From NCBI GenBank assembly GCA_016219705.1, contig JACRKQ010000053.1:6793-70792 (forward strand): DNA of 64,000 nt, read 5' to 3'. The position numbers were made by a program, and so were the translations under genes. Shown one piece after another: positions 4,404 through 63,856 of the stretch (position 1 is its first letter; each line of letters starts with the position of its first letter). The notes beneath the pieces are model-generated. The model saw only the letters and a list, made by a program, of their open reading frames with translations, did no database searches and was not told where the DNA came from. The stretch is from Candidatus Saganbacteria bacterium. Its GTDB lineage: Bacteria; Margulisbacteria; WOR-1; O2-12-FULL-45-9.

Positions 4404-5414
4404 TTATAGACGCAAGCTGGCAACAGGGGAGAGGGATAATGACGAATGACTAATGACTAATGACGAATTAATGAATTTATAATACCCAGCACAGCCAATC
4501 ATGGCTGCGTTATCAGTACAATATTCAAAGGGAGGAATTATTACTTCCAGCCCTTCTTTCTGACCTCTTTTTTGTAATCGACTCCTTAAGCTGGAATTGG
4601 CCGAGACGCCGCCGGCGAGGGTGACAATTTGGACGTTGCGATCTTTGGCCGCGCGAATGGTTTTCTCTACCAGCGTTTCGACGATGGCTTCCTGAAAACT
4701 AGCGACGAGGTCTGGAACTTGTGAAGCGTGAAGAGTGAGGCGTGAAACGTAATTTACAACCGCTGTTTTGATTCCGCTGAAACTGAAATCGTAACCCTGG
4801 TCCATCATAGGGCGGGGAAATTTGATGGCGGCTGGATTTCCTCTCTTGGCCAACTTATCAATAACCGGTCCGCCGGGATAACCCAAACCCAAAAAACGAG
4901 CGACTTTATCAAACGCTTCTCCCGCCGCATCATCCCGAGTCCGGCCCAGCGTTTCATATTCTCCATGACCTTTGACGAGAATAATCATTGTGTGCCCGCC
5001 GGAGACTAATAAACTAATAAAGGGAAAACTTAGAATTTTAGATTTAGAGTTTAAGAAGTTGGCGTATATGTGTCCTTCAAGATGGTTAACTTCAACCAGC
5101 GGGATTTTTCTTCCCCAGGCAATGGCTTTAGCTGCGCAGAGCCCGACGAGGAGGGAGCCGACCAAGCCTGGGCCATAAGTTACGGCAACGGCATTTATGT
5201 CGCCAAACCCAACGTTGGCTCTTTCCAGCGCTTCTTTAATGACCGGATTGATCACTTCAATATGTTTGCGAGCGGCAACTTCGGGAACAATCCCGCCATA
5301 TTTTTTATGAAATTCAATTTGCGAGGAGATGACGTTGGAAAGAACTTCCTGTCCGTCTCTGACAACGGCGGCGGCGGTTTCGTCACAGGATGTTTCGATG
5401 GCTACTATAAACAC
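4404..5414 (-). CDS. tsaD: tRNA N6-adenosine threonylcarbamoyltransferase
   Basis: Kae1/TsaD motifs (IETSCDETAAAV, SLLVSGGHT, DDAAGEAFDKVAR, AGGVSAN); contains heptamer-repeat-derived segments. Confidence 0.85.
   Translation of the reverse strand: MFIVAIETSCDETAAAVVRDGQEVLSNVISSQIEFHKKYGGIVPEVAARKHIEVINPVIKEALERANVGFGDINAVAVTYGPGLVGSLLVGLCAAKAIAWGRKIPLVEVNHLEGHIYANFLNSKSKILSFPFISLLVSGGHTMIILVKGHGEYETLGRTRDDAAGEAFDKVARFLGLGYPGGPVIDKLAKRGNPAAIKFPRPMMDQGYDFSFSGIKTAVVNYVSRLTLHASQVPDLVASFQEAIVETLVEKTIRAAKDRNVQIVTLAGGVSANSSLRSRLQKRGQKEGLEVIIPPFEYCTDNAAMIGCAGYYKFINSSLVISHSSLSLSPVASLRL
4437..4478. repeat. heptamer array (TAATGAC/GAATGAC)x4 plus degenerate units, 42 nt, encoding the C-terminal tail of tsaD
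   Basis: Direct reading of sequence. Confidence 0.85.
4721..4755. repeat. heptamer array GTGAAGC GTGAAGA GTGAGGC GTGAAAC inside tsaD
   Basis: Direct reading. Confidence 0.8.
5021..5048. repeat. irregular TTAGANT ~7-nt tandem repeat inside tsaD
   Basis: Direct reading. Confidence 0.6.
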
Positions 5415-6478
5415 AGCAGAGGAACCTCCTTTTTGGACAATGACAGTGGTCGGGCATCACGCTGGCCCAGGAAGACGTCGGGGAAGATATCAAGGGGCCA
5501 ACCCAGTTCGTTCAAAGAAAGGGAAAAATAATTAGTGGCATTATAGGCAAAATCGCCGTAGGAATGGTAGGCGTAATGTAAACTGACGCCGGCGTAATGG
5601 AAAGTTGCTCCGTAAGTGAAATTATTGGTCAAGGTCGAGCTCTGCGGGTCCTGGTCGACGCCGGCGCGTAAAGTTAAAAATGGATTAGGCGCAAATTCAA
5701 TTCCGGTATGGATGGTTGTCGATTTGGCTGTTTGCAGACTTACATTGGCGTCGGCCGCGATGGAGAGATCAACCGGCGCATAAACAGCCGCTTTTAATTC
5801 TTCGCCCAAGAGAAAAAACCGGGAGCCGATTTTTATTGAGAGAGGTAGATTTTCTCCCTGGGAATTTGCGATGATTTTACTAGAACTGAAGAGATTTTGG
5901 CCGACAACGCCAAAGCTAAACGGACCAACTCCCTGCTGCAGCAAACCGACGTCCAGGTTCCAGCAGCTGCCGGAGCCGGCGCTGACTTCATAGCCATTCT
6001 GGGTATAATATTTCAAGTTAAGCCCCCAGGAGAAGCGTTCATTAAGACGGCGGCCGAACGAGAGGAAGATAACGCTATCGTTGAAAGAGGTTGTTGATTT
6101 TGGTAAAACGCTGGCCGAATCCCTGATTTCAATTCCTCCGATATTGGCGCCGACATAACCCAGCCCGATGGCGCTCTGCTCGCCGAGAGGATAAACGCCG
6201 CCTAGCAGAGAATAAGTGACATCCTCCATGACATTGGCTGACATTGAGAGGAGTTCAAAAGCGTCGATACCGCCCAATCCAGCTGGATTGCTGAAAATAG
6301 TATCAGCGGATTCTCCGACCGCCACGTATGCTCGTCCCATTCCCAGCGCGCGGGCGCCAACGCCGATGGTGAGAGGATCAAAGGTTGTTTGGGCGGCAAC
6401 AACACTGGGAAGAAATGACAAATGACAAATGACAAATGACAAATGAAGGAATCGCTTCGCGATATTATAATAATTCAT
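5405..6478 (-). CDS. secreted outer-membrane beta-barrel protein, PorV/PorQ/FadL-like
   Basis: N-terminal signal peptide followed by GARALGMGRAYVAVGESADTIFSNPAGLG (FadL/PorV-family N-terminal signature), alternating beta-strand pattern, aromatic C-terminus; family assignment from memory only. Confidence 0.4.
   Translation of the reverse strand: MNYYNIAKRFLHLSFVICHLSFLPSVVAAQTTFDPLTIGVGARALGMGRAYVAVGESADTIFSNPAGLGGIDAFELLSMSANVMEDVTYSLLGGVYPLGEQSAIGLGYVGANIGGIEIRDSASVLPKSTTSFNDSVIFLSFGRRLNERFSWGLNLKYYTQNGYEVSAGSGSCWNLDVGLLQQGVGPFSFGVVGQNLFSSSKIIANSQGENLPLSIKIGSRFFLLGEELKAAVYAPVDLSIAADANVSLQTAKSTTIHTGIEFAPNPFLTLRAGVDQDPQSSTLTNNFTYGATFHYAGVSLHYAYHSYGDFAYNATNYFSLSLNELGWPLDIFPDVFLGQRDARPLSLSKKEVPLLCL
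6413..6452. repeat. (AAATGAC)x4 + AAATGAAGGAAT terminus, antisense within signal-peptide codons of PorV-like gene
   Basis: Direct reading. Confidence 0.9.
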
Positions 6479-13758: not shown

Positions 13759-13798
13759 AAATGACAAATGACAAATTACAAATGACAAATGAAGGAAT
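13759..13798. repeat. AAATGAC AAATGAC AAATTAC AAATGAC + AAATGAAGGAAT in efp-accB spacer
   Basis: Direct reading. Confidence 0.9.
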
Positions 13799-16950: not shown

Positions 16951-18650
16951 TGCGCAAAAAGTGGTTGATTCATCCGGAGAGTCAGTTAGTGCGACAATTA
17001 GCGGACGAATTAAATATCTCTGCTATTACGGCCCAAATTCTGATCAATCGCGGCATTAATAATCCGGCCCAAGCCCAGGTTTTTCTTCAACCTAAATTAA
17101 TCAATTTGTCCGATCCTTTTGAAATTCCCAATATAAAACAGGCGGCCGAACGGGTTTTATTGGCTAAAGAACGCGGGGAAAAGGTTTTGATTTTTGGAGA
17201 TTATGATGTTGATGGGGTGACCGGCACGGCCATTCTGCTGCAGACGCTCAAATTCCTGGGGCTGGCCCCTTTACATTATATACCGCACCGCTACGATGAA
17301 GGCTACAGCCTGTCGCTTGAAGCAGTGGAAAAAATCGCGGCTGACGGGGTAAAGCTTATTATCACCGTAGATTGCGGGACCTCTAATTTTACAGAGATTA
17401 CCCGAGCGCGTGAATTAGGGATGGAAGTGGTGGTAACTGATCATCATAATTTATCTCGACAAGTCCTGCCGGCGGCGGCGATTGTTAATCCCAAATTCAT
17501 GGCGCAAGACCATCCGGCGCGGAATCTGGCAGGGGCGGGGGTCGCGTTTAAGTTTGCTTGGGCTCTTTTGCGGACGGCGGGGATAAAAGAGAGCGCCTTT
17601 CTGGCTTCTCTTCTTGATCTGGCGGCTTTGGGGACGATTGCCGATATTGTCCCTCTGGCGGAAGAAAATCGGATTATCGCTGTCCGCGGGTTAGCCCAGC
17701 TCAACCAGCGCCAGCGTGTCGGTTTAAGACATTTATCTGATGTGGCCGGCCTGCCCGAGAGGGTGACGGTCGAACATGTCAGTTTTTCCCTGGCGCCGCG
17801 GATCAATGCGGCGGGCCGTTTGGAGCACGCCAATAAAGCGCTGGAGCTAATGTTGACGGCTGATGAATCTCAAGCCCAAGAGCTGGCTGGCGAATTAAAT
17901 TCAATAAATATAAAACGTCAGGATATAGGCAGCGGCATCAAGTCAGCGGTCTTCGGGCAATTAACCGATCATATTATGGAGGACGAGCCGTTAATTGTTT
18001 TAAGCGGGGATAATTGGCATCCTGGAGTAATTGGCATTGTTGCTTCGCAAGTGGTCGATCGCTTTTCCCGTCCGACGATTTTGATTGGTGTTTATGATGA
18101 AGTGGGACGGGGTTCGGCGCGGTCATTAGCTGGGATTAATATTTATAATCTACTTAATTCCTGCAGCGATCTCTTTGAAACTTTTGGCGGACACGCCGGG
18201 GCGGCGGGTTTTGAAATTAAAACTGATAAACTGACTGAATTGACCAGCCGCTTAAAAGAGGCGGCGCAGATATCTTTAGCGCCTGAAGCTTTGATCCCTA
18301 AACTGATGATCGATATGGAATTACCGACCCAAACCTTAACATTAACGCTGGCAAAAAAGTTGGAAATATTTGCTCCTCATGGAGAAGGGAATCCTCAACC
18401 GCTCTTTTTAAGCCGCCAACTTCGCTTAATCGATCAACGGACTGTCGGCCGGGACAATCGGCATTTGAAATTAAAATTATCTGATGGAATTGCTCATCTT
18501 GATACCATTGGCTTTGATTGTGGCCACTTGGCCGGCCAATTAGTGGCTAATGCCTGTTATGATGTTGTCTATCGACTGGAGTCCAATGAATGGAATGGAT
18601 TTGAGAATGTCCAGCTTAACCTGGCGGATATTAGGGAGGCTAAATCATGA
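16950..18650 (+). CDS. recJ: single-stranded-DNA-specific exonuclease RecJ
   Basis: DHH (GDYDVDGVTG, VTDHH) and DHHA1 motifs, 566 aa. Confidence 0.85.
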   Translation: MRKKWLIHPESQLVRQLADELNISAITAQILINRGINNPAQAQVFLQPKLINLSDPFEIPNIKQAAERVLLAKERGEKVLIFGDYDVDGVTGTAILLQTLKFLGLAPLHYIPHRYDEGYSLSLEAVEKIAADGVKLIITVDCGTSNFTEITRARELGMEVVVTDHHNLSRQVLPAAAIVNPKFMAQDHPARNLAGAGVAFKFAWALLRTAGIKESAFLASLLDLAALGTIADIVPLAEENRIIAVRGLAQLNQRQRVGLRHLSDVAGLPERVTVEHVSFSLAPRINAAGRLEHANKALELMLTADESQAQELAGELNSINIKRQDIGSGIKSAVFGQLTDHIMEDEPLIVLSGDNWHPGVIGIVASQVVDRFSRPTILIGVYDEVGRGSARSLAGINIYNLLNSCSDLFETFGGHAGAAGFEIKTDKLTELTSRLKEAAQISLAPEALIPKLMIDMELPTQTLTLTLAKKLEIFAPHGEGNPQPLFLSRQLRLIDQRTVGRDNRHLKLKLSDGIAHLDTIGFDCGHLAGQLVANACYDVVYRLESNEWNGFENVQLNLADIREAKS

Positions 18651-19948
18651 AGATAATGGTTGTCGGTTCCGGCGGCCGCGAGCACGCGCTGATTTGGAAA
18701 ATCAAGCAGAGTTCAGTCGTTGCAAAAATTTATTGTGTGCCGGGGAATGCCGGAACAGCGGAACTGGCGGAAAATGTGGAGATTAAAGCGGATGATATTA
18801 ACGGTCTGCTGAAATTTGCCAAAGAACAAAAAATCAATCTGACTGTTGTTGGTCCCGAAGTGCCGTTGGCGGCCGGCATAGTTGATTTGTTCAACAAAAA
18901 TGATTTAAGGATTTTTGGCCCGTCTGCGGCGGCAGCGCGGATTGAGGGGAGCAAAGTTTTTGCTAAACAATTTATGGCTAAATATGGCATTCCCACCGCC
19001 CAATCCGGGATCTTCGCTGATAAAAAAAAGGCAAAAGCTTACATTAACATGATGGGGGCGCCGATCGTGGTCAAGGCCGATGGTTTAGCGGCGGGGAAGG
19101 GGGTCGTCGTCTGCCAAACAGTTGAGGCGGCAAATCAGGCGGTTGAACTTATTATGGAGAAAAAAGAATTCGGCCAGGCCGGGGCGCAGGTTGTCATTGA
19201 GGAGTGTTTGATCGGGGAAGAATCTTCGATTATTGCTTTAACTGATGGCGAAACAATTGTTCCTCTGGCTTCATCTCAAGACCACAAACGGATTTTTGAT
19301 AATGATGAGGGACCAAATACCGGAGGGATGGGAGCGTATTCACCGGCGCCGGTTGTGACCGATGGTTTAATGGAACAGATTAATAATGAGGTCCTTCTCC
19401 CCTTCGTCCAAGGAATGAAACAGGAGGGGATTGTTTACAAGGGAGTTATTTATGCTGGAATTATGGTTACAAAAGCGGGGCCGAAGGTTTTAGAGTTTAA
19501 TGCCCGTTTTGGCGATCCGGAAACCCAACCGATCATGATGCGGCTCAAGAGCGATCTTGTCCCGATTCTTGAAGCAGTGATAGACGGTAAATTAGCCGGC
19601 CAAAAAATTATTTGGGACGAACGAGCGGCGGTCTGTGTCGTTTTAGCGGCGGGAGGCTATCCGGGGAAATATGAGACTGGTTTGCCGATCACCGGATTAG
19701 ATAAAGTTCATCAGGTTGCTAAGGCTTATGTTTTTCATGCGGGAACGAAAATAGAGGATAGAACAGAGAAGACAGAACACAGACTACAGATATCAACTAA
19801 TGGCGGCCGCGTTCTTGGCGTGACAGCGTTAGGCGATTCGCTCAAATTTGCTATCGACAAAGCTTACCAGGCTGTCTCATTAATCAATTTTAAAGGCATG
19901 CATTACCGGAAAGATATCGGTGGGAAGGCCCTGAAGCTGGTTCGCTAA
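18647..19948 (+). CDS. purD: phosphoribosylamine--glycine ligase
   Basis: Full-length PurD (ATP-grasp; MKIMVVGSGGREHAL, TNGGRVLGVTALG); carries a 42-nt heptamer-array insertion. Confidence 0.9.
   Translation: MKIMVVGSGGREHALIWKIKQSSVVAKIYCVPGNAGTAELAENVEIKADDINGLLKFAKEQKINLTVVGPEVPLAAGIVDLFNKNDLRIFGPSAAAARIEGSKVFAKQFMAKYGIPTAQSGIFADKKKAKAYINMMGAPIVVKADGLAAGKGVVVCQTVEAANQAVELIMEKKEFGQAGAQVVIEECLIGEESSIIALTDGETIVPLASSQDHKRIFDNDEGPNTGGMGAYSPAPVVTDGLMEQINNEVLLPFVQGMKQEGIVYKGVIYAGIMVTKAGPKVLEFNARFGDPETQPIMMRLKSDLVPILEAVIDGKLAGQKIIWDERAAVCVVLAAGGYPGKYETGLPITGLDKVHQVAKAYVFHAGTKIEDRTEKTEHRLQISTNGGRVLGVTALGDSLKFAIDKAYQAVSLINFKGMHYRKDIGGKALKLVR
19753..19794. repeat. (AGANNNC)x6 heptamer array, 42 nt in-frame in purD
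   Basis: Direct reading. Confidence 0.85.
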
Positions 19949-22296: not shown

Positions 22297-22827
22297 ATGG
22301 CCAACGCAAAAGTTATTGATAAAAAACAACAGCTTGTCGATCAGCTCAAGGAAAAAATTGAGAAAGCCCGGGTTCTGGTCATTTCTGATTATCGCGGCGT
22401 GACAGTCTCTGAAATTACTGGATTGCGCCGCAAATTGCTGAAAGAAAAATCGGAATTTAAAATTGTAAAAAATACACTGTTGCAACGCGCTCTGGCGGCC
22501 AGCGGCTTTACCGATTTAGACCAGCATTTAAGCGGTCCGACCGCGATTCTCTTCGGTTATCAGGATCCGATTGCCCCGATAAAATTGCTGGTTGAGTATG
22601 TTGAAGAGATTGAAAAAGGCCAGGTTAAGGGCGGCATCGTTGAACGCCGAGTGGTCGACATCAAAGGGATTGCCGCGCTGTCGAAATTGCCGCCTAAAGA
22701 AGTCTTAATTGCCAAAGTGATTGGTGGTTTTAAGTCACCGCTTTATGGTCTGGTAAATGTGCTCCAGGGCAATATCCGTAAATTAGTTTATGTTTTTAAT
22801 GCTGTTAAGGATAAAAAAAGTAGTTAG
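22297..22827 (+). CDS. rplJ: 50S ribosomal protein L10
   Basis: Homology pattern and position between rplA and rplL. Confidence 0.85.
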   Translation: MANAKVIDKKQQLVDQLKEKIEKARVLVISDYRGVTVSEITGLRRKLLKEKSEFKIVKNTLLQRALAASGFTDLDQHLSGPTAILFGYQDPIAPIKLLVEYVEEIEKGQVKGGIVERRVVDIKGIAALSKLPPKEVLIAKVIGGFKSPLYGLVNVLQGNIRKLVYVFNAVKDKKSS

Positions 22828-22857
22828 TTGTGAGTTGTAAGTTAATTGAGAAAGGAA
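22821..22857. repeat. TAGTTAG TTGTGAG TTGTAAG TTAATTG + AGAAAGGAAGG in rplJ-rplL spacer
   Basis: Direct reading. Confidence 0.7.
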
Positions 22858-50557: not shown

Positions 50558-50597
50558 GAATGACTAATTCCTAATGCCTAATGTCTAATGAAGGAAT
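50558..50597. repeat. GAATGAC TAATTCC TAATGCC TAATGTC + TAATGAAGGAAT filling spacer upstream of truA
   Basis: Direct reading. Confidence 0.9.
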
Positions 50598-51364
50598 TGC
50601 TTCACGATGTTATCTTATTTATTCAATACGATGGGACCAACTTTGCCGGTTTTGAATTGCAACCTGGCCAGCGCACCATTCGCGGAGAACTGGAAAAAAC
50701 CCTGGCCAAAGTTTACCAACAAAAAATATCAATTATTTCTGCTGCTCGGACTGATGCTGGGGCGCATGCTTTAGAAAATGTGGTCAGCTTTAAGGCCAAA
50801 AATAGTATTCCGCTTGATAAAATACCTACAGTGTTAAATACTGTTCTCCCACGGACCATCAGAATTATCAAGGCTGAAAAAAACAATGGTCATGTCCGCC
50901 ATGATGCTAAAACAAAAATTTACGAATACTTAATCTTTAATGGGGAAAACCTTCCGCCGCAGTTAAATCATCTGGTCTGGCAGGTCGGGCTCCCGCTTAA
51001 TCTCACGGCGATGAAAAGAGCGGCAAGATATCTAGTTGGCAAACACGATTTTTCTTCGTTTTGCGCGGCCCATTCAGATGATAAGGACTTTGTCAAAAAA
51101 ATACATTCATTTGACATTTGTTCCGCCTTAGGCGGATCATTTGTCATTTGGGGTGGAGTGAAGTATCGTTTGATCAGAATCCGCGTGACCGGCGACGGTT
51201 TTTTGTACAAGATGGTCAGAAACATTGTCGGAACTTTAGTTTGTGTTGGCTTAGGAAAGTTGACTGTGGCTGATGTCAAAGGGATCCTGGAAGCTAAAGA
51301 TCGCCAAAAAGCGGGTAGAACTGCGCCGGCACAGGGGTTGTGCTTGGTGAAGATTCGCTATTAA
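50588..51364 (+). CDS. truA: tRNA pseudouridine(38-40) synthase
   Basis: IQYDGTNFAGFELQ, RTDAGAHAL catalytic Asp motif; start ATG lies inside the heptamer-array terminus. Confidence 0.85.
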   Translation: MKELLHDVILFIQYDGTNFAGFELQPGQRTIRGELEKTLAKVYQQKISIISAARTDAGAHALENVVSFKAKNSIPLDKIPTVLNTVLPRTIRIIKAEKNNGHVRHDAKTKIYEYLIFNGENLPPQLNHLVWQVGLPLNLTAMKRAARYLVGKHDFSSFCAAHSDDKDFVKKIHSFDICSALGGSFVIWGGVKYRLIRIRVTGDGFLYKMVRNIVGTLVCVGLGKLTVADVKGILEAKDRQKAGRTAPAQGLCLVKIRY

Positions 51365-59058: not shown

Positions 59059-61923
59059 CTGGAGTACAAACAAACCCTCAATCTGCCCCAGACCGCTTTT
59101 CCCATCCGCGCTAATTTGCAAAAAATTGAAGCGGATTTGCTGGCGCATTGGGAAAATCTTGACCTCTATCAGCAAATTCAAGCCAAGAATAAAACAGCCG
59201 CTAAAAAATTTGTTTTGCATGACGGCCCCCCTTATCCTAATGGCGATATTCACCTTGGCCATGCTTTGAATAAAATCATCAAAGATATCATTATTAAATA
59301 TAAATCGATGCAGGGCTTTGCCTCTCCCTATATCCCCGGTTGGGACTGTCACGGTTTGCCGATCGAAACACAGCTGATCAAGCAGTTGACAGATGAAGAG
59401 CGCAAAAAATATAAAGAGCCGAATAAAAAAGTTGAGTTTAGGAATAGGTGTAAAGAATATGCCTTAAAATATGTTGACTTGCAGCGCCAGGAGTTTAAAC
59501 GCCTGGGAGCGCTTGGCGACTGGGAAAACCCATATTTAACGATTGATCCTCTATATGAAGCCGACATAATTCGCCTCTTTGGGGATTTGGCCGAAAAAGG
59601 TTATGTTTATCGCGGCTTAAAACCGATTCACTGGTGTCCGCATTGCGAAACGGCATTGGCGGAAGCGGAATTGGAATATGAGGAGGATAAGTCGCCGTCA
59701 ATCTACGTCAAATTCGAAATCCGAAATCCGAAATCAGAAATAAATTCCAAAATTAAAAATCCAAACTTGCCAACTGATTTGCCCTGGTTTTTTGTCGTTT
59801 GGACGACGACGCCGTGGACTCTGCCAGCGAACATGGCGATTGCAGCGCATGCGGAATACGAGTACGTATTTATTAATGTCAAATGTCAAATGACAAATGA
59901 CAAATATCGGAATGAAATTTATATTGTTGCCGAAGGTTTGCTGGAAGATTTTGTAAAAAGAGTCGGGATTACAGATTATCAAATCATTGATAAGACCAAA
60001 GGGGAATATTTAGAAGGCGTTGTCGCTAAACATCCCTTTATTGATTGCGACGTTATGCTCGTCTTGGATGAATATGTCACCCTGGAGCAGGGGACGGGCT
60101 TGGTACATATTGCTCCAGGACACGGAATTGAAGATTATAAAGTTGGTCTAAAATATAAATTGTTCCCCATTGTCATGCCGGTTACGGCTGATGGGCGCTT
60201 TGACGAAACGGTCCCGGAATTTATCCGCGGTGAATTTTATAAGAAAGCGAATGACTTAATTATTGAGCAACTCAAAAATGGAGGAAGTTTTCTCAGGTTA
60301 GAGAACATAAAACATTCTTTCCCTCATTGCTGGCGCTGTAAGAATCCCGTTATTTTTCGGGCAACCGAGCAGTGGTTTGTTTCTGTTGATCATCTTGGAA
60401 TGCGCGAGAAGGCATTGAAGGCCATTATTGATACAAAGTGGTATCCGGCTTGGGGAGAAAATCGGATTCGCGGGATGGTAGAAACCCGTCCGGATTGGTG
60501 TATCTCTCGTCAGAGAACCTGGGGGGTGCCGATTCCGGTTTTTTATTGTGATAAATGTCACCAGCCGTCAATGACCGGAATTTTTAATGAATCAATCCGC
60601 AAAATTGTTTTAGAACGGGGGACGAATGGTTGGTTTGATTTGTCAGCCAAGGAGATTTTGCCGTCGGGAACAAAATGTTCAAAATGCGACGGCGATTCTT
60701 TTACTAAAGAAACCGATATTCTCGATGTCTGGTTTGAATCAGGCTCGTCTCACGCGCTGCTGGAGCGCTTGCCGGATCATCATTGGCCGGCGGACTTATA
60801 TCTTGAGGGTTCTGATCAGCATCGCGGTTGGTTTCAAAGTTCTTTATTGATTGCTGTGGGATATAAAGGGAGGGCGCCGTTTAATTCTGTCCTGACTCAT
60901 GGCTTTACCATTGATGATAAGGGAAAAAAGATGAGCAAATCCCTGGGCAATGTCATCGGTCCGCAAGAGGTGGTTAAAGAATATGGAGCGGATGTTTTGC
61001 GTCTCTGGGTTGCGTCGACAGATTTTCGCAACGATATGGCGGCGTCAAAGAATATTCTAGTTCAGGTCAGAGAGGCCTATTCAAAAATTCGCAATACCTG
61101 CCGTTTTTTAATCAGTAATTTATATGATTTTACCCCCTCCTCCGACGTGCGTCGGAGTCTCCCCCTTGAAAAGGGGGAGAATGAGAGGGGGTTGCTTGAA
61201 CTTGACCGTTGGATACTTTTGCGCTTGAATCGATTAATTGAGAGGATAATCCAATCTTACGACGAATATGAACTGCACGTTGTTTATCACGCTCTTTATG
61301 AATTTTGTGTAAACGATCTCTCGGCTCATTATCTCGATATGTCCAAAGATCGGCTGTATTGCGACGGTAAAAGTTCGCCAGAGCGACGCTCGGCCCAATT
61401 TGCGATGTGGGAGATATTGTTTGCCTTAGTTGGAATGATGGCCCCTGTTCTCTCCTTTACGGCGGAAGACATCGGGCGGCATATGGCGGCAATGACTAAT
61501 GACAAATGCCTAATGCCTAATGAAGGCAGTATCTTTTTATCAAACTTCCCTAAAATTAAGGAAGAATATTTAGATAAAGAGTTAGAAGCTCGCTGGGAAA
61601 AGATTATGGTTTTGCGAGCGGAAGTTTATAAAGTGTTGGAAGAGAAGCGGGCCAATAAAATTATTTCGGCTTCGATTGAAGCCGTTGTGGAGATTGGCTT
61701 GCAGGGTCGGGAATGGCTGAAAGCTGTTGATCCCAAAATTCTCCCGATGGTTTTAATTGTTTCCCAAGTCAAATTGGTCGACGGAGATAAAATCGCAGTA
61801 AGTAAGGCGTCTGATCAAAAATGCGGCCGTTGCTGGATGTTGCTCCCGACGGTGGGGAAGAGCCATCAACATCCGGATTTGTGTGAGCGTTGTGAAAAGG
61901 TTGTCAGGGAATTGACAGGGTAA
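59059..61923 (+). CDS. ileS: isoleucine--tRNA ligase (probable CTG start; the ORF track begins at TTG 59116)
   Basis: HLGHALNK (HIGH), KMSKS, C-terminal zinc finger CGRCW...CERC; conserved N-terminus EYKQTLNLPQTAFP is encoded upstream of the called start. Confidence 0.85.
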   Translation: MEYKQTLNLPQTAFPIRANLQKIEADLLAHWENLDLYQQIQAKNKTAAKKFVLHDGPPYPNGDIHLGHALNKIIKDIIIKYKSMQGFASPYIPGWDCHGLPIETQLIKQLTDEERKKYKEPNKKVEFRNRCKEYALKYVDLQRQEFKRLGALGDWENPYLTIDPLYEADIIRLFGDLAEKGYVYRGLKPIHWCPHCETALAEAELEYEEDKSPSIYVKFEIRNPKSEINSKIKNPNLPTDLPWFFVVWTTTPWTLPANMAIAAHAEYEYVFINVKCQMTNDKYRNEIYIVAEGLLEDFVKRVGITDYQIIDKTKGEYLEGVVAKHPFIDCDVMLVLDEYVTLEQGTGLVHIAPGHGIEDYKVGLKYKLFPIVMPVTADGRFDETVPEFIRGEFYKKANDLIIEQLKNGGSFLRLENIKHSFPHCWRCKNPVIFRATEQWFVSVDHLGMREKALKAIIDTKWYPAWGENRIRGMVETRPDWCISRQRTWGVPIPVFYCDKCHQPSMTGIFNESIRKIVLERGTNGWFDLSAKEILPSGTKCSKCDGDSFTKETDILDVWFESGSSHALLERLPDHHWPADLYLEGSDQHRGWFQSSLLIAVGYKGRAPFNSVLTHGFTIDDKGKKMSKSLGNVIGPQEVVKEYGADVLRLWVASTDFRNDMAASKNILVQVREAYSKIRNTCRFLISNLYDFTPSSDVRRSLPLEKGENERGLLELDRWILLRLNRLIERIIQSYDEYELHVVYHALYEFCVNDLSAHYLDMSKDRLYCDGKSSPERRSAQFAMWEILFALVGMMAPVLSFTAEDIGRHMAAMTNDKCLMPNEGSIFLSNFPKIKEEYLDKELEARWEKIMVLRAEVYKVLEEKRANKIISASIEAVVEIGLQGREWLKAVDPKILPMVLIVSQVKLVDGDKIAVSKASDQKCGRCWMLLPTVGKSHQHPDLCERCEKVVRELTG
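59715..59749. repeat. (CGAAATC)x3 plus degenerate units inside ileS
   Basis: Direct reading. Confidence 0.85.
59874..59915. repeat. TAATGTC AAATGTC AAATGAC AAATGAC AAATATC GGAATGA, 42 nt in-frame in ileS
   Basis: Direct reading. Confidence 0.9.
61133..61191. repeat. 59-nt GC-rich nested palindromic element inside ileS: outer stem CCCCCTC/GAGGGGG enclosing two perfect hairpins
   Basis: Inner hairpins: CTCCGACG-tg-CGTCGGAG (61140-61157) and TCTCCCCC-TTGAAAA-GGGGGAGA (61158-61180). Confidence 0.8.
61490..61526. repeat. CAATGAC TAATGAC AAATGCC TAATGCC TAATGAAGG in ileS
   Basis: Direct reading. Confidence 0.85.
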
Positions 61924-63814: not shown

Positions 63815-63856
63815 AAATGACAAATGCCAAATTACAAATGACAAATGAAGGAAGAA
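63815..63856. repeat. AAATGAC AAATGCC AAATTAC AAATGAC + AAATGAAGGAAG downstream of ahcY
   Basis: Direct reading. Confidence 0.9.

Follow-up and report, generated by a model that had tools for sequence, protein, structure and literature searches.

The present analysis concerns 64,000 nucleotides of a Candidatus Saganbacteria contig (hereafter the window, meaning the whole of that stretch) and, within it, a 37-bp array of heptanucleotides located inside ileS, the gene for isoleucyl-tRNA synthetase (IleRS). The array occupies positions 61490-61526 of the forward strand, reads CAATGAC TAATGAC AAATGCC TAATGCC TAATGAAGG, and is likely to be an in-frame, translated copy of a small element dispersed in Saganbacteria and Margulisbacteria, composed of four NAATGAC-type heptamers followed by a defined terminus, AATGAAGG. 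A preliminary description had placed an AATGAC-family array here, and its sequence and coordinates proved exact. The exact IleS protein is annotated as Candidatus Saganbacteria, and its nearest relatives, at 68% identity or less, come from Saganbacteria, Margulisbacteria or WOR-1; the host phylum is the sister of Cyanobacteria. The gene contains arrays in three loops, numbered here as sites 1 to 3 in order of position, the one in question being site 3. Gene and array are laid out as follows:

59116..61923, + strand: ileS, isoleucine--tRNA ligase, as given in the open reading frame (ORF) listing, with HIGH (HLGH) and KMSKS motifs present
61490-61496, + strand: first unit, CAATGAC
61497-61503, + strand: second unit, TAATGAC
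61504-61510 (61504..61510), + strand: third unit, AAATGCC, the sole unit of the array whose TGA would be in frame, read as AAA TGC (Lys-Cys) and not AAA TGA
61511-61517, + strand: fourth unit, TAATGCC
61518-61526, + strand: final segment, TAATGAAGG
61519..61526, + strand: AATGAAGG, the Shine-Dalgarno-like terminus, read as Asn-Glu-Gly

The true start of ileS is probably at 59059, since the NCBI protein (P0001) has 954 aa and the upstream translation, MEYKQTLNLP..., agrees with the orthologues. A head-to-tail 7-nt repeat is identified by Tandem Repeats Finder, which assigns period 7 and 4.7 copies to 61491-61523. The array is in frame and its product, AAMTNDKCLMPNEG, corresponds to residues 791-804 in the 935-aa numbering, more than 130 codons away from both ends of the gene. 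Pfam domains tRNA-synt_1, Anticodon_1 (697-859) and zf-FPG_IleRS are found in the protein, and the array lies within Anticodon_1.

The ileS copy is one of seven AATGAC-type arrays in the window (at 4438, 6413, 13759, 50559, 59875, 61491 and 63815), where arrays of other heptamer families are found at 4721, 19760, 22818 and 59710. The pattern AATGMCWAATGMC, with at most one mismatch, is matched 25 times against 0.9 expected, a figure reached in none of 100 shuffles. Taken over the whole window, AATGAAGG is not unusually frequent (6, with 3.7 expected); five of the six sites, however, coincide with the 3' end of an AATGAC-type array, and outside arrays AATGA is followed by AGG in one of 167 cases. 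The probability that at least five of seven array ends are AATGAAGG is about 1.6e-10, that for the ileS array by itself about 0.006, and the similarity of the termini is therefore above chance, the opposite of what the preliminary description had named as evidence against itself.

A common format, four units followed by AATGAA(G/T)G, is shared by all AATGAC-type arrays of the window and of the related loci L005, L008 and L010. The copy at 6413 reads (AAATGAC)4 AAATGAAGG, that at 13759 AAATGAC AAATGAC AAATTAC AAATGAC AAATGAAGG, that at 63815 AAATGAC AAATGCC AAATTAC AAATGAC AAATGAAGG, and that at 50559 GAATGAC TAATTCC TAATGCC TAATGTC TAATGAAGG. Four units with AATGAAGG are also present in another genome (L005:2074) and in the ileS site-3 copies of four genomes, and the same format is seen in the intergenic copy L010:14697. 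Ten Margulisbacteria loci, 228 kb in total, contain 44 period-7 arrays when all families are taken together, of which 27 have between 4.3 and 5.0 copies; 31 of the 44 lie well inside long ORFs, in a sample centred on, and biased towards, ileS. No significant fold of the array as RNA was detected (z -1.66), no Rfam family reached threshold at any array of the window, the only window match at threshold being one tRNA, and inspection by eye of the surroundings of the ileS array for a target-site duplication revealed nothing above 3 nt. The + strand carries all seven AATGAC-type arrays, the two inside minus-strand genes among them; GC skew is positive over the whole window and nearly all genes are on the + strand, so the orientation of the arrays could follow replication or transcription.

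Orthologous genes were compared through the following IleS gene and protein pairs: L005 with P0012, L008 with P0042, L006 with P0015, L011 with P0055, L009 with P0023, L010 with P0006, L133 with P0002, L132 with P0038, L134 with P0054, L136 with P0052, and L135 with P0099. In orthologues 55-68% identical, site 3 is taken up by an AATGAC-type array which equals that of the window in length and phase and, in most cases, in number of units. It reads CAATGAC AAATGAC AAATGTC AAATGTC AAATGAATG in L005, GAATGAC AAATGAC AAATTTC AAATGAC AAATGAAGG in L008 and TAATTAA AAATGAA AAATTAA AAATTAA AAATGAAGG in L006; L011 has a shorter array ending in AATGAAGG, and L009 a decayed version. Elsewhere the same position is occupied by other sequences: CCAGTAA-type units with the in-frame TAA changed to TTG in L010, 8.6 AAATCCG units in L133, AATGCCG-type and TTCGAAA-type arrays in L132, and short non-repeat loops in L134 and L136. 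At the protein level, MTND-type loops are found in about a dozen of 120 orthologues, spread from the deepest to the shallowest branches, and sister pairs which are well supported in a distance-based bootstrap routine are unlike at site 3 (P0015/P0028, 100%; P0059/P0069, 100%; P0002/P0007, 98%). Genomes from different samples, assembled independently of one another, share this array and its site. Site 3 is therefore an orthologous hot spot with turnover, common to distant relatives, and for this reason the ileS copy is not a recent arrival; its distribution may reflect one old array and many replacements, or repeated gains. A search of genome contigs for close IleS relatives returned only distant IleS from other phyla, with 23-33% identity. 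Among the orthologues compared, the site does not look like a phase-variation locus: the gene is the essential ileS, and the number of units is equal in L005, L006 and L008, that of L011 being shorter.

Evidence on the terminus comes in part from another loop of the same gene. At site 1 of L134, L136 and L135 the sequence AAATTTC AAATGAC AAATGTC AAATGTC AAATGAAGG is found, and here AAATGAAGG is read in another frame, giving Q-M-T-N-V-K-C-Q-M-K-D/E as opposed to the N-E-G of site 3, so that selection at the protein level cannot explain the terminus. The array at site 1 of the window, equal in length and phase, is of the AAATCCG type and lacks GAAGG. Codon usage at site 3 was compared pairwise among five orthologues: Asn is AAT in 20 of 20 pairs, Asp GAC in 6 of 6, Lys AAA in 8 of 8 and Glu GAA in 10 of 10, and GAC is used in the array even though four of these five genes use GAT more often than GAC for Asp. 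Identical codon pairs within the array amount to 47 of 56, whereas usage for these amino acids in the rest of the gene predicts 29.9; just past ...GG, at the third base of the Gly codon, agreement falls to one of six pairs. In addition, the ileS copy of L005 and the intergenic copy of L010 at 14697 differ by one base over 37, including the AATGAATG end, and a structured variant, ...TGTC TGTC AATGAATG, is thus present at non-homologous loci of the two genomes.

The occurrence at another site in another frame, the codon conservation ending at GG, and the structured variants at unrelated loci together support, from sequence comparison, the assignment of the terminus to the element at the DNA level. 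That array and terminus form one unit, as the preliminary description had proposed, agrees with these observations and with the fixed format elsewhere. Its companion proposal, that the terminus is not kept solely for translation initiation, holds as well, for no start codon follows the terminus in ileS. As for the further statement that array and terminus move or expand as a unit, the unit stands, and movement may be read from the dispersal of the copies.

The presence of the array in a coding sequence is conditioned by its stop codons. A perfect (AAATGAC)n array has TGA in all three frames, its reverse complement having none in any frame. The ileS array has no in-frame stop, while its remaining frames retain 2 and 4; likewise, all seven in-gene forward arrays examined lack in-frame stops and keep one to four in other frames. 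In the ileS copies, wherever a unit would place TGA in frame, the triplet is TGC, TGT, TTT or TTA, the third unit of site 3 having TGT in L005, TTT in L008 and TTA in L006. The use of UGA as a sense codon in the lineage was considered and rejected, because the in-gene arrays have replaced every in-frame TGA while out-of-frame ones persist, which indicates that TGA is a stop codon in these organisms.

The encoded segment falls outside the conserved core of the protein. In an AlphaFold model (alignment A1, mean pLDDT, predicted local distance difference test score, 75.7), a helix at residues 780-793 is followed by coil, and residues 796-803 have pLDDT below 50. Relative to the solved IleRS structures 8c9f and 1ffy, an 8-residue insertion is found at the array (HIPNVT--------EESV vs HMAAMTNDKCLMPNEGSI), and the length of the loop varies across the orthologues of alignment A1. 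Given the insertion and the low pLDDT, the modelled structure places the array, as a translated insertion, in a surface loop of the anticodon-binding domain, a loop both permissive and poorly ordered, and the in-gene copy is most likely a tolerated passenger.

The AATGAC-type arrays of the window outside ileS lie between genes or at the ends of minus-strand ORFs:

13759..13795, + strand: copy in the efp/accB spacer, 2 nt past the efp stop, with AAGGAA 7 nt before ATG GTT GAC of the biotin carboxyl carrier protein gene
50559..50594, + strand: copy in the spacer between a class-V aminotransferase gene and truA, 2 nt past the stop; the truA ORF has its first start codon in the ATG of the terminus
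63815..63851, + strand: copy in the spacer between the genes for S-adenosylhomocysteine (AdoHcy) hydrolase and a DUF5665 protein, 2 nt past the stop, with AAGGAAG 9 nt before ATG
4438..4480, + strand: AATGACG-type array with end AATTAATGAATTT, antisense to tsaD (minus strand) and located at the 3' end of its ORF, the C-terminal tail being encoded by it
6413..6449, + strand: perfect copy, (AAATGAC)x4 and AAATGAAGG, with the tail AATCGCTTCGCGAT behind it; the copy is antisense to a FadL-like outer-membrane protein ORF of the minus strand, within the 5' end of that ORF

Intergenic copies begin 0-5 nt past the upstream stop codon, and the AAGGAA at their end is in two cases 7-10 nt from the next start. 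The AdoHcy hydrolase-DUF5665 spacers of L005, L006, L133 and L011 are 0-23 nt long and contain no array, and no array is found in the aminotransferase-truA spacers of L005 and L133, the L006 spacer not being comparable; the copies at 50559 and 63815 are therefore insertions relative to related genomes. Since a perfect array stops all three frames, has no significant fold and no Rfam match, and is placed between a stop and a start, we infer that the intergenic copies may act as intercistronic cassettes providing a stop, an unstructured, A-rich leader and a Shine-Dalgarno sequence. The spacer copies at 13759 and 63815, two of the three in the window, carry variant units, each leaving one frame open. 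In L005:2074-2190, upstream of a class-V aminotransferase gene, two inverted AATGAC-type elements flank GC-rich hairpins (GTCCGCCGTTGGCGGAC, TCCGTCGAAGACGGA), an arrangement which may be composite or similar to that of miniature inverted-repeat transposable elements.

A tail, GGAATCGCTTCGC(GAT..), follows the array terminus at several non-homologous loci, namely window 6450-6470 and 50595-50612, L010:14730-14750, L079 and L032, the last two, which add at least two further copies, deriving from the metagenome matches listed. Its shared presence hints at a longer composite element; the count of the tail in the window, 7 matches with at most two mismatches against 8.6 expected, is not above chance. 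In the minus-strand ORF 5405..6478, FadL/Toluene_X-like, the reverse reading of the array and AATCGCTTCGCGAT tail (6413-6478) resembles a signal peptide, whose apparent hydrophobic core is encoded by the array. The minus-strand tsaD ORF, 4404..5414, contains two heptamer arrays: that at 4438-4480 encodes the tail ..FINSSLVISHSSLSLSP.., past the Pfam TsaD match which ends at residue 307, and that at 4721-4750, GTGAAGC-type, is inside the domain (..RLTLHASQ..). An AGAACAC-type array of 3.4 copies is located at 19760-19783 in the purD ORF (18647..19948), in the region of the phosphoribosylglycinamide synthetase C-terminal domain. In the rplJ-rplL spacer an AGTTGTN-type array (22818-22843) extends over the rplJ stop, with AAAGGAAGGTG and the rplL start coming next; its unit family is also represented in L010 (17709, 19307) and L134 (3799).

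Within ileS of the window, three further elements accompany the site-3 array:

59710..59765, + strand: site 1, AAATCCG-type array, AAATTCG AAATCCG AAATCCG AAATCAG AAATAAA ..., encoding FEIRNPKSEINSKIKNPN and starting at the conserved Lys-Phe codons AAATTC
59875..59915, + strand: site 2, AATGAC-type array, AATGTCA AATGTCA AATGACA AATGACA AATATCG GAATGAA, encoding NVKCQMTNDKYRNE, its in-frame units reading TGT and TAT
61132..61192, + strand: nested three-stem palindromic element, in frame, with stems 61140-61147/61150-61157 and 61158-61167/61171-61180, closed by ACCCCCTC/GAGGGGGT

Peptides very similar to that of the site-1 array, EIRNPKSEINSKIKNPN (59710-59765), are found in dozens of orthologues; other orthologues have at this site an AATGAC-type array of equal length and phase (QMTNVKCQMKD..), and further ones a non-repeat loop one residue shorter (KVIDPKSIKVDKKSP..). 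Arrays of both families begin at conserved Lys-Phe codons AAATTY. The site-2 array is a 9-residue insertion relative to most orthologues. The palindromic element at 61132-61192 encodes ..PSSDVRRSLPLEKGENERG.., folds with -43.1 kcal/mol (z -6.9) and is likewise an insertion relative to most orthologues; a peptide resembling its product, LPLNKGENVERSETRGG, occurs in a different IleS loop of P0044, a likeness which at the sequence level suggests a second family of small mobile elements. At site 1 of P0006 (L010:10673-10693) a 21-nt perfect hairpin, CCTGCCTGCCGATCAGGCAGG, with a fold of -16.9 kcal/mol (z -5.0), is in frame inside an AAATCCC array (PACRSGR), and related peptides (CLPAGR/K) are found in variable loops of P0051, P0045, P0032 and P0099. 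The ileS gene of P0038 (L132:5943-8768) contains six arrays of six unit families (AGGGACC, AACTGCA, GTCCGAA, ATTCCGC, AATACCG and TTCGATA), placed in variable loops that are occupied in other orthologues as well; about 4.4 kb downstream of the gene is an IS91-family transposase gene.

In the proposed scheme, the element would be copied as a unit, terminus included, to new places, as the dispersal of its copies suggests. The ileS copy would be viable only because the sole unit with a would-be in-frame TGA reads TGC, and its Shine-Dalgarno-like end, useful between genes, would be carried in ileS as a passenger, Asn-Glu-Gly. Arrays would attract or replace other arrays, the three array loops of ileS being hot spots for swaps among heptamer families. 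Since synonymous positions stay near the consensus, and conservation stops exactly at the end of the element, a homogenising process acting on DNA may hold the copies near the family consensus: conversion or templated copying from other arrays, slippage combined with selection that keeps the length constant, or selection exerted on the nucleic acid itself. A bolder version, which we regard as improbable, is that Margulisbacteria, and perhaps their cyanobacterial relatives, possess an active process of templated writing or conversion, by which fixed-format arrays of about five heptamers are laid down at pre-existing arrays or microhomologies. If true, it would provide a portable cassette of three-frame stops and a ribosome-binding site (RBS) between genes, and would repeatedly overwrite, in register, the same loops of essential genes with arrays of other families. 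It would also explain the constant unit number and the synonymous conservation ending at the element boundary, together with family swaps at constant loop length (at site 1, AAAT-NNN x5 in both families) and the unlike sister lineages.

Several observations weigh against reading the ileS array as a copy of a dispersed element, and some of them favour a local origin, in which the array would be a microsatellite generated by slippage in place, from a seed in the ileS loop, with GAAGG representing ancestral Glu/Asp-Gly codons. Where the window has E-G-S, E-E-S is found in solved Firmicute IleRS (..TEES..) and D-G-S in some short-loop orthologues (..KIDG/KTDG/KKDG before Ser-Val/Ile-Phe), so that GAAGG may derive in part from ancestral codons or from microhomology at the insertion. 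The codons AAATTY at which site-1 arrays start are themselves unit-like, and neighbouring units share a variant, as slippage would give (TGCC TGCC in the window, TGTC TGTC in L005). In other organisms, among the metagenome matches listed, where AATGACC is the commonest unit, NAATGAC units are widespread and form ordinary variable arrays of 5-29 units, mostly lacking the terminus; the fixed format thus belongs to the lineage and not to the unit itself, and an origin of the family as a whole by slippage is plausible. The codon test is built on non-independent pairs, drawn from 12 codons of only five sequences; no insertion or excision of recent date was seen, the nearest IleS being 68% identical, so that mobility is judged by comparing distant genomes; the AlphaFold model is of moderate quality, and the stop-plus-RBS role of the intergenic copies is one that we infer from their sequence and placement. 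A local microsatellite is nevertheless an unlikely source of the ileS array: the AAATGAAGG end recurs, in another frame, at site 1, a position at which GAAGG is missing from orthologues that are array-free or have AAATCCG-type arrays; all AATGAC-type arrays of these genomes have an equal number of units; one structured variant is present at non-homologous loci of different genomes; and synonymous positions are kept across orthologues only 55-68% identical.

Nucleotide conservation beyond the needs of the protein, ending at the element boundary, and the fixed copy number could also be expected of a selected nucleic-acid signal in ileS, where a protein reading heptad-spaced motifs would bind mRNA or DNA for regulation or pausing; RNA-binding regulators (S1, Csp or CsrA-like) have been proposed for TAACTGA repeats (MacGregor 2015, PMC4679880). 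Such a signal has a low probability here, as the well-supported sisters P0015/P0028, P0059/P0069 and P0002/P0007 differ, having another family or no array, many orthologues lack the array altogether, and neither an RNA structure, nor an Rfam family, nor a candidate binding protein was found for it. The preliminary description had also raised an N-truncated product from an internal ATG preceded by a Shine-Dalgarno sequence. GAAGG does resemble such a sequence, and the same end precedes real starts by 7-9 nt at 13759 and 63815; in ileS, however, no ATG, GTG or TTG is found in any frame within 40 nt after 61526, and the next in-frame ATG is near 61608, about 80 nt downstream of the terminus. The terminus is moreover replaced in orthologues by AATGAATG, AATGATGG or unrelated arrays, and a C-terminal fragment of roughly 130 residues would have no catalytic domain. 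Internal initiation at this copy, for want of a nearby start codon, was rejected, and an RBS driving an IleRS fragment is very improbable. Chance resemblance or an assembly artefact, to which the unremarkable total of AATGAAGG in the window, taken alone, would lend itself, is practically negligible in view of the 25 family matches against 0.9 expected, the terminus statistics and the recurrence of array and site in independent assemblies. A translated copy of the dispersed element remains the reading best suited to these data.

The interest of the locus is in the repeat system behind it, which extends across the lineage and is poorly understood. Reports of short heptamer arrays from several phyla go back 35 years, and neither their origin nor their function is agreed upon. 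With its recognisable end, the element can be tallied and aligned copy by copy, unlike an anonymous microsatellite, and forward copies in an essential, universally conserved gene turn the alignment of orthologues into a clock and a before/after view of insertion, stop-purging and replacement. Comparison of the intergenic copies, made of stop, array, Shine-Dalgarno-like end and start, with the in-gene ones allows the nature of the element to be told apart from its uses. On the practical side, repeat-encoded loops in many conserved proteins inflate apparent divergence and can mislead alignments and domain calls, and they explain odd low-complexity peptides (KSEIRNP, KCQMTND) of Margulisbacteria proteins.

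Among known systems, TAACTGA direct repeats have been described in marine Beggiatoaceae, some Cyanobacteria and Bacteroidetes (MacGregor 2015, PMC4679880). Of the systems described, theirs is the most similar in behaviour. Each array has 2-6 copies of the heptamer and is in most cases intergenic, overlapping or closely following an upstream stop and lying near the next start (PMC4679880), a placement shared by the window copies at 13759, 50559 and 63815; stops in all three forward frames and the absence of a predicted RNA structure (PMC4679880) are features shared by the AATGAC family. They also occur in ribosomal-protein operons (PMC4679880), for which the AGTTGTN array of the window, over the rplJ stop and upstream of rplL, is a parallel. 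The unit is different, being AATGAC[A/T] here and [ACT]AATG[AC]C in ileS, with no TAACTGA, and the ileS copy, internal to a gene, does not share the intercistronic placement. Moreover, the AATGAC element has a defined, Shine-Dalgarno-like 3' terminus, AATGAAGG, whereas canonical RBS are rare in the spacers of the BOGUAY repeats (PMC4679880), and BOGUAY forward repeats are confined to ORF ends (PMC4679880), whereas forward copies are here internal to an essential gene, with their stops removed.

Geobacter metallireducens has a 4x GGGACCG element, in 49 copies within and between genes, and a 5x MTYCTGA element at 15 sites (Aklujkar 2009, PMC2700814), which are the closest prior report of fixed-copy heptamer elements. 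GGGACC-type arrays are also found in IleS genes of relatives of the window (L132:6079, L011:10819). Units and phylum are otherwise different, and a conserved terminus, stop-purging and cross-species hot spots are not reported for the Geobacter elements (PMC2700814), which were interpreted as regulatory RNA elements or binding sites (PMC2700814). G-rich heptamers were found by Rehm et al. to prefer four units, a preference explained by quadruplex formation (PMC4692102). This explanation cannot apply to AATGAC.

Tandem 7-nt units spread genome-wide, with several unit families per genome, are reportedly the subject of the work of Mazel et al. in 1990 on cyanobacterial STRR and of Mrazek et al. 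in 2007 on long simple sequence repeats (LSSR). The unit of STRR2, which we take to be TTGGTCA (AATGACC on the other strand), would match the window units, AATGAC followed by A, T or G, at six of seven positions. The window fits the class of dispersed heptamers, with seven AATGAC-type arrays and at least four of other families in 64 kb. STRR and LSSR are, however, variable in length and mostly non-coding, and repeat units which are not multiples of three are reported as rare in coding regions, while the AATGAC element has a fixed format and 31 of the 44 arrays, in the ileS-biased sample, are in long ORFs.

Rickettsia palindromic elements (RPE), 100-150 bp long, are said to have been found by Ogata et al. 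in 2000 in frame within protein-coding genes. As with RPE, a selfish or neutral repeat would be tolerated in frame at surface regions of an essential housekeeping protein, translated and inherited, and the ileS array is indeed a frame-preserving insertion of 8 residues relative to homologues, outside the conserved core (pLDDT below 50). It is not a palindrome, being a 37-bp direct repeat, and the hairpin at 61132-61192 is more RPE-like. The small dispersed repeats (SDR) of Nostoc, reportedly described by Elhai et al. in 2008 in work cited by PMC3116915, are very small mobile elements (21-27 nt) which are often embedded in tandem heptamer repeats; the 21-nt hairpin inside the AAATCCC array at IleS site 1 of L010 is similar to them, the ileS finding itself being a heptamer array and not a hairpin SDR. 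No paper linking Saganbacteria or Margulisbacteria with heptamer repeats was found in the literature searched. Compared with all these systems, four features of the present one appear to be new: the defined terminus, stop-purged forward copies inside an essential gene, phylum-wide orthologous hot spots, and the replacement of one family by another in register.

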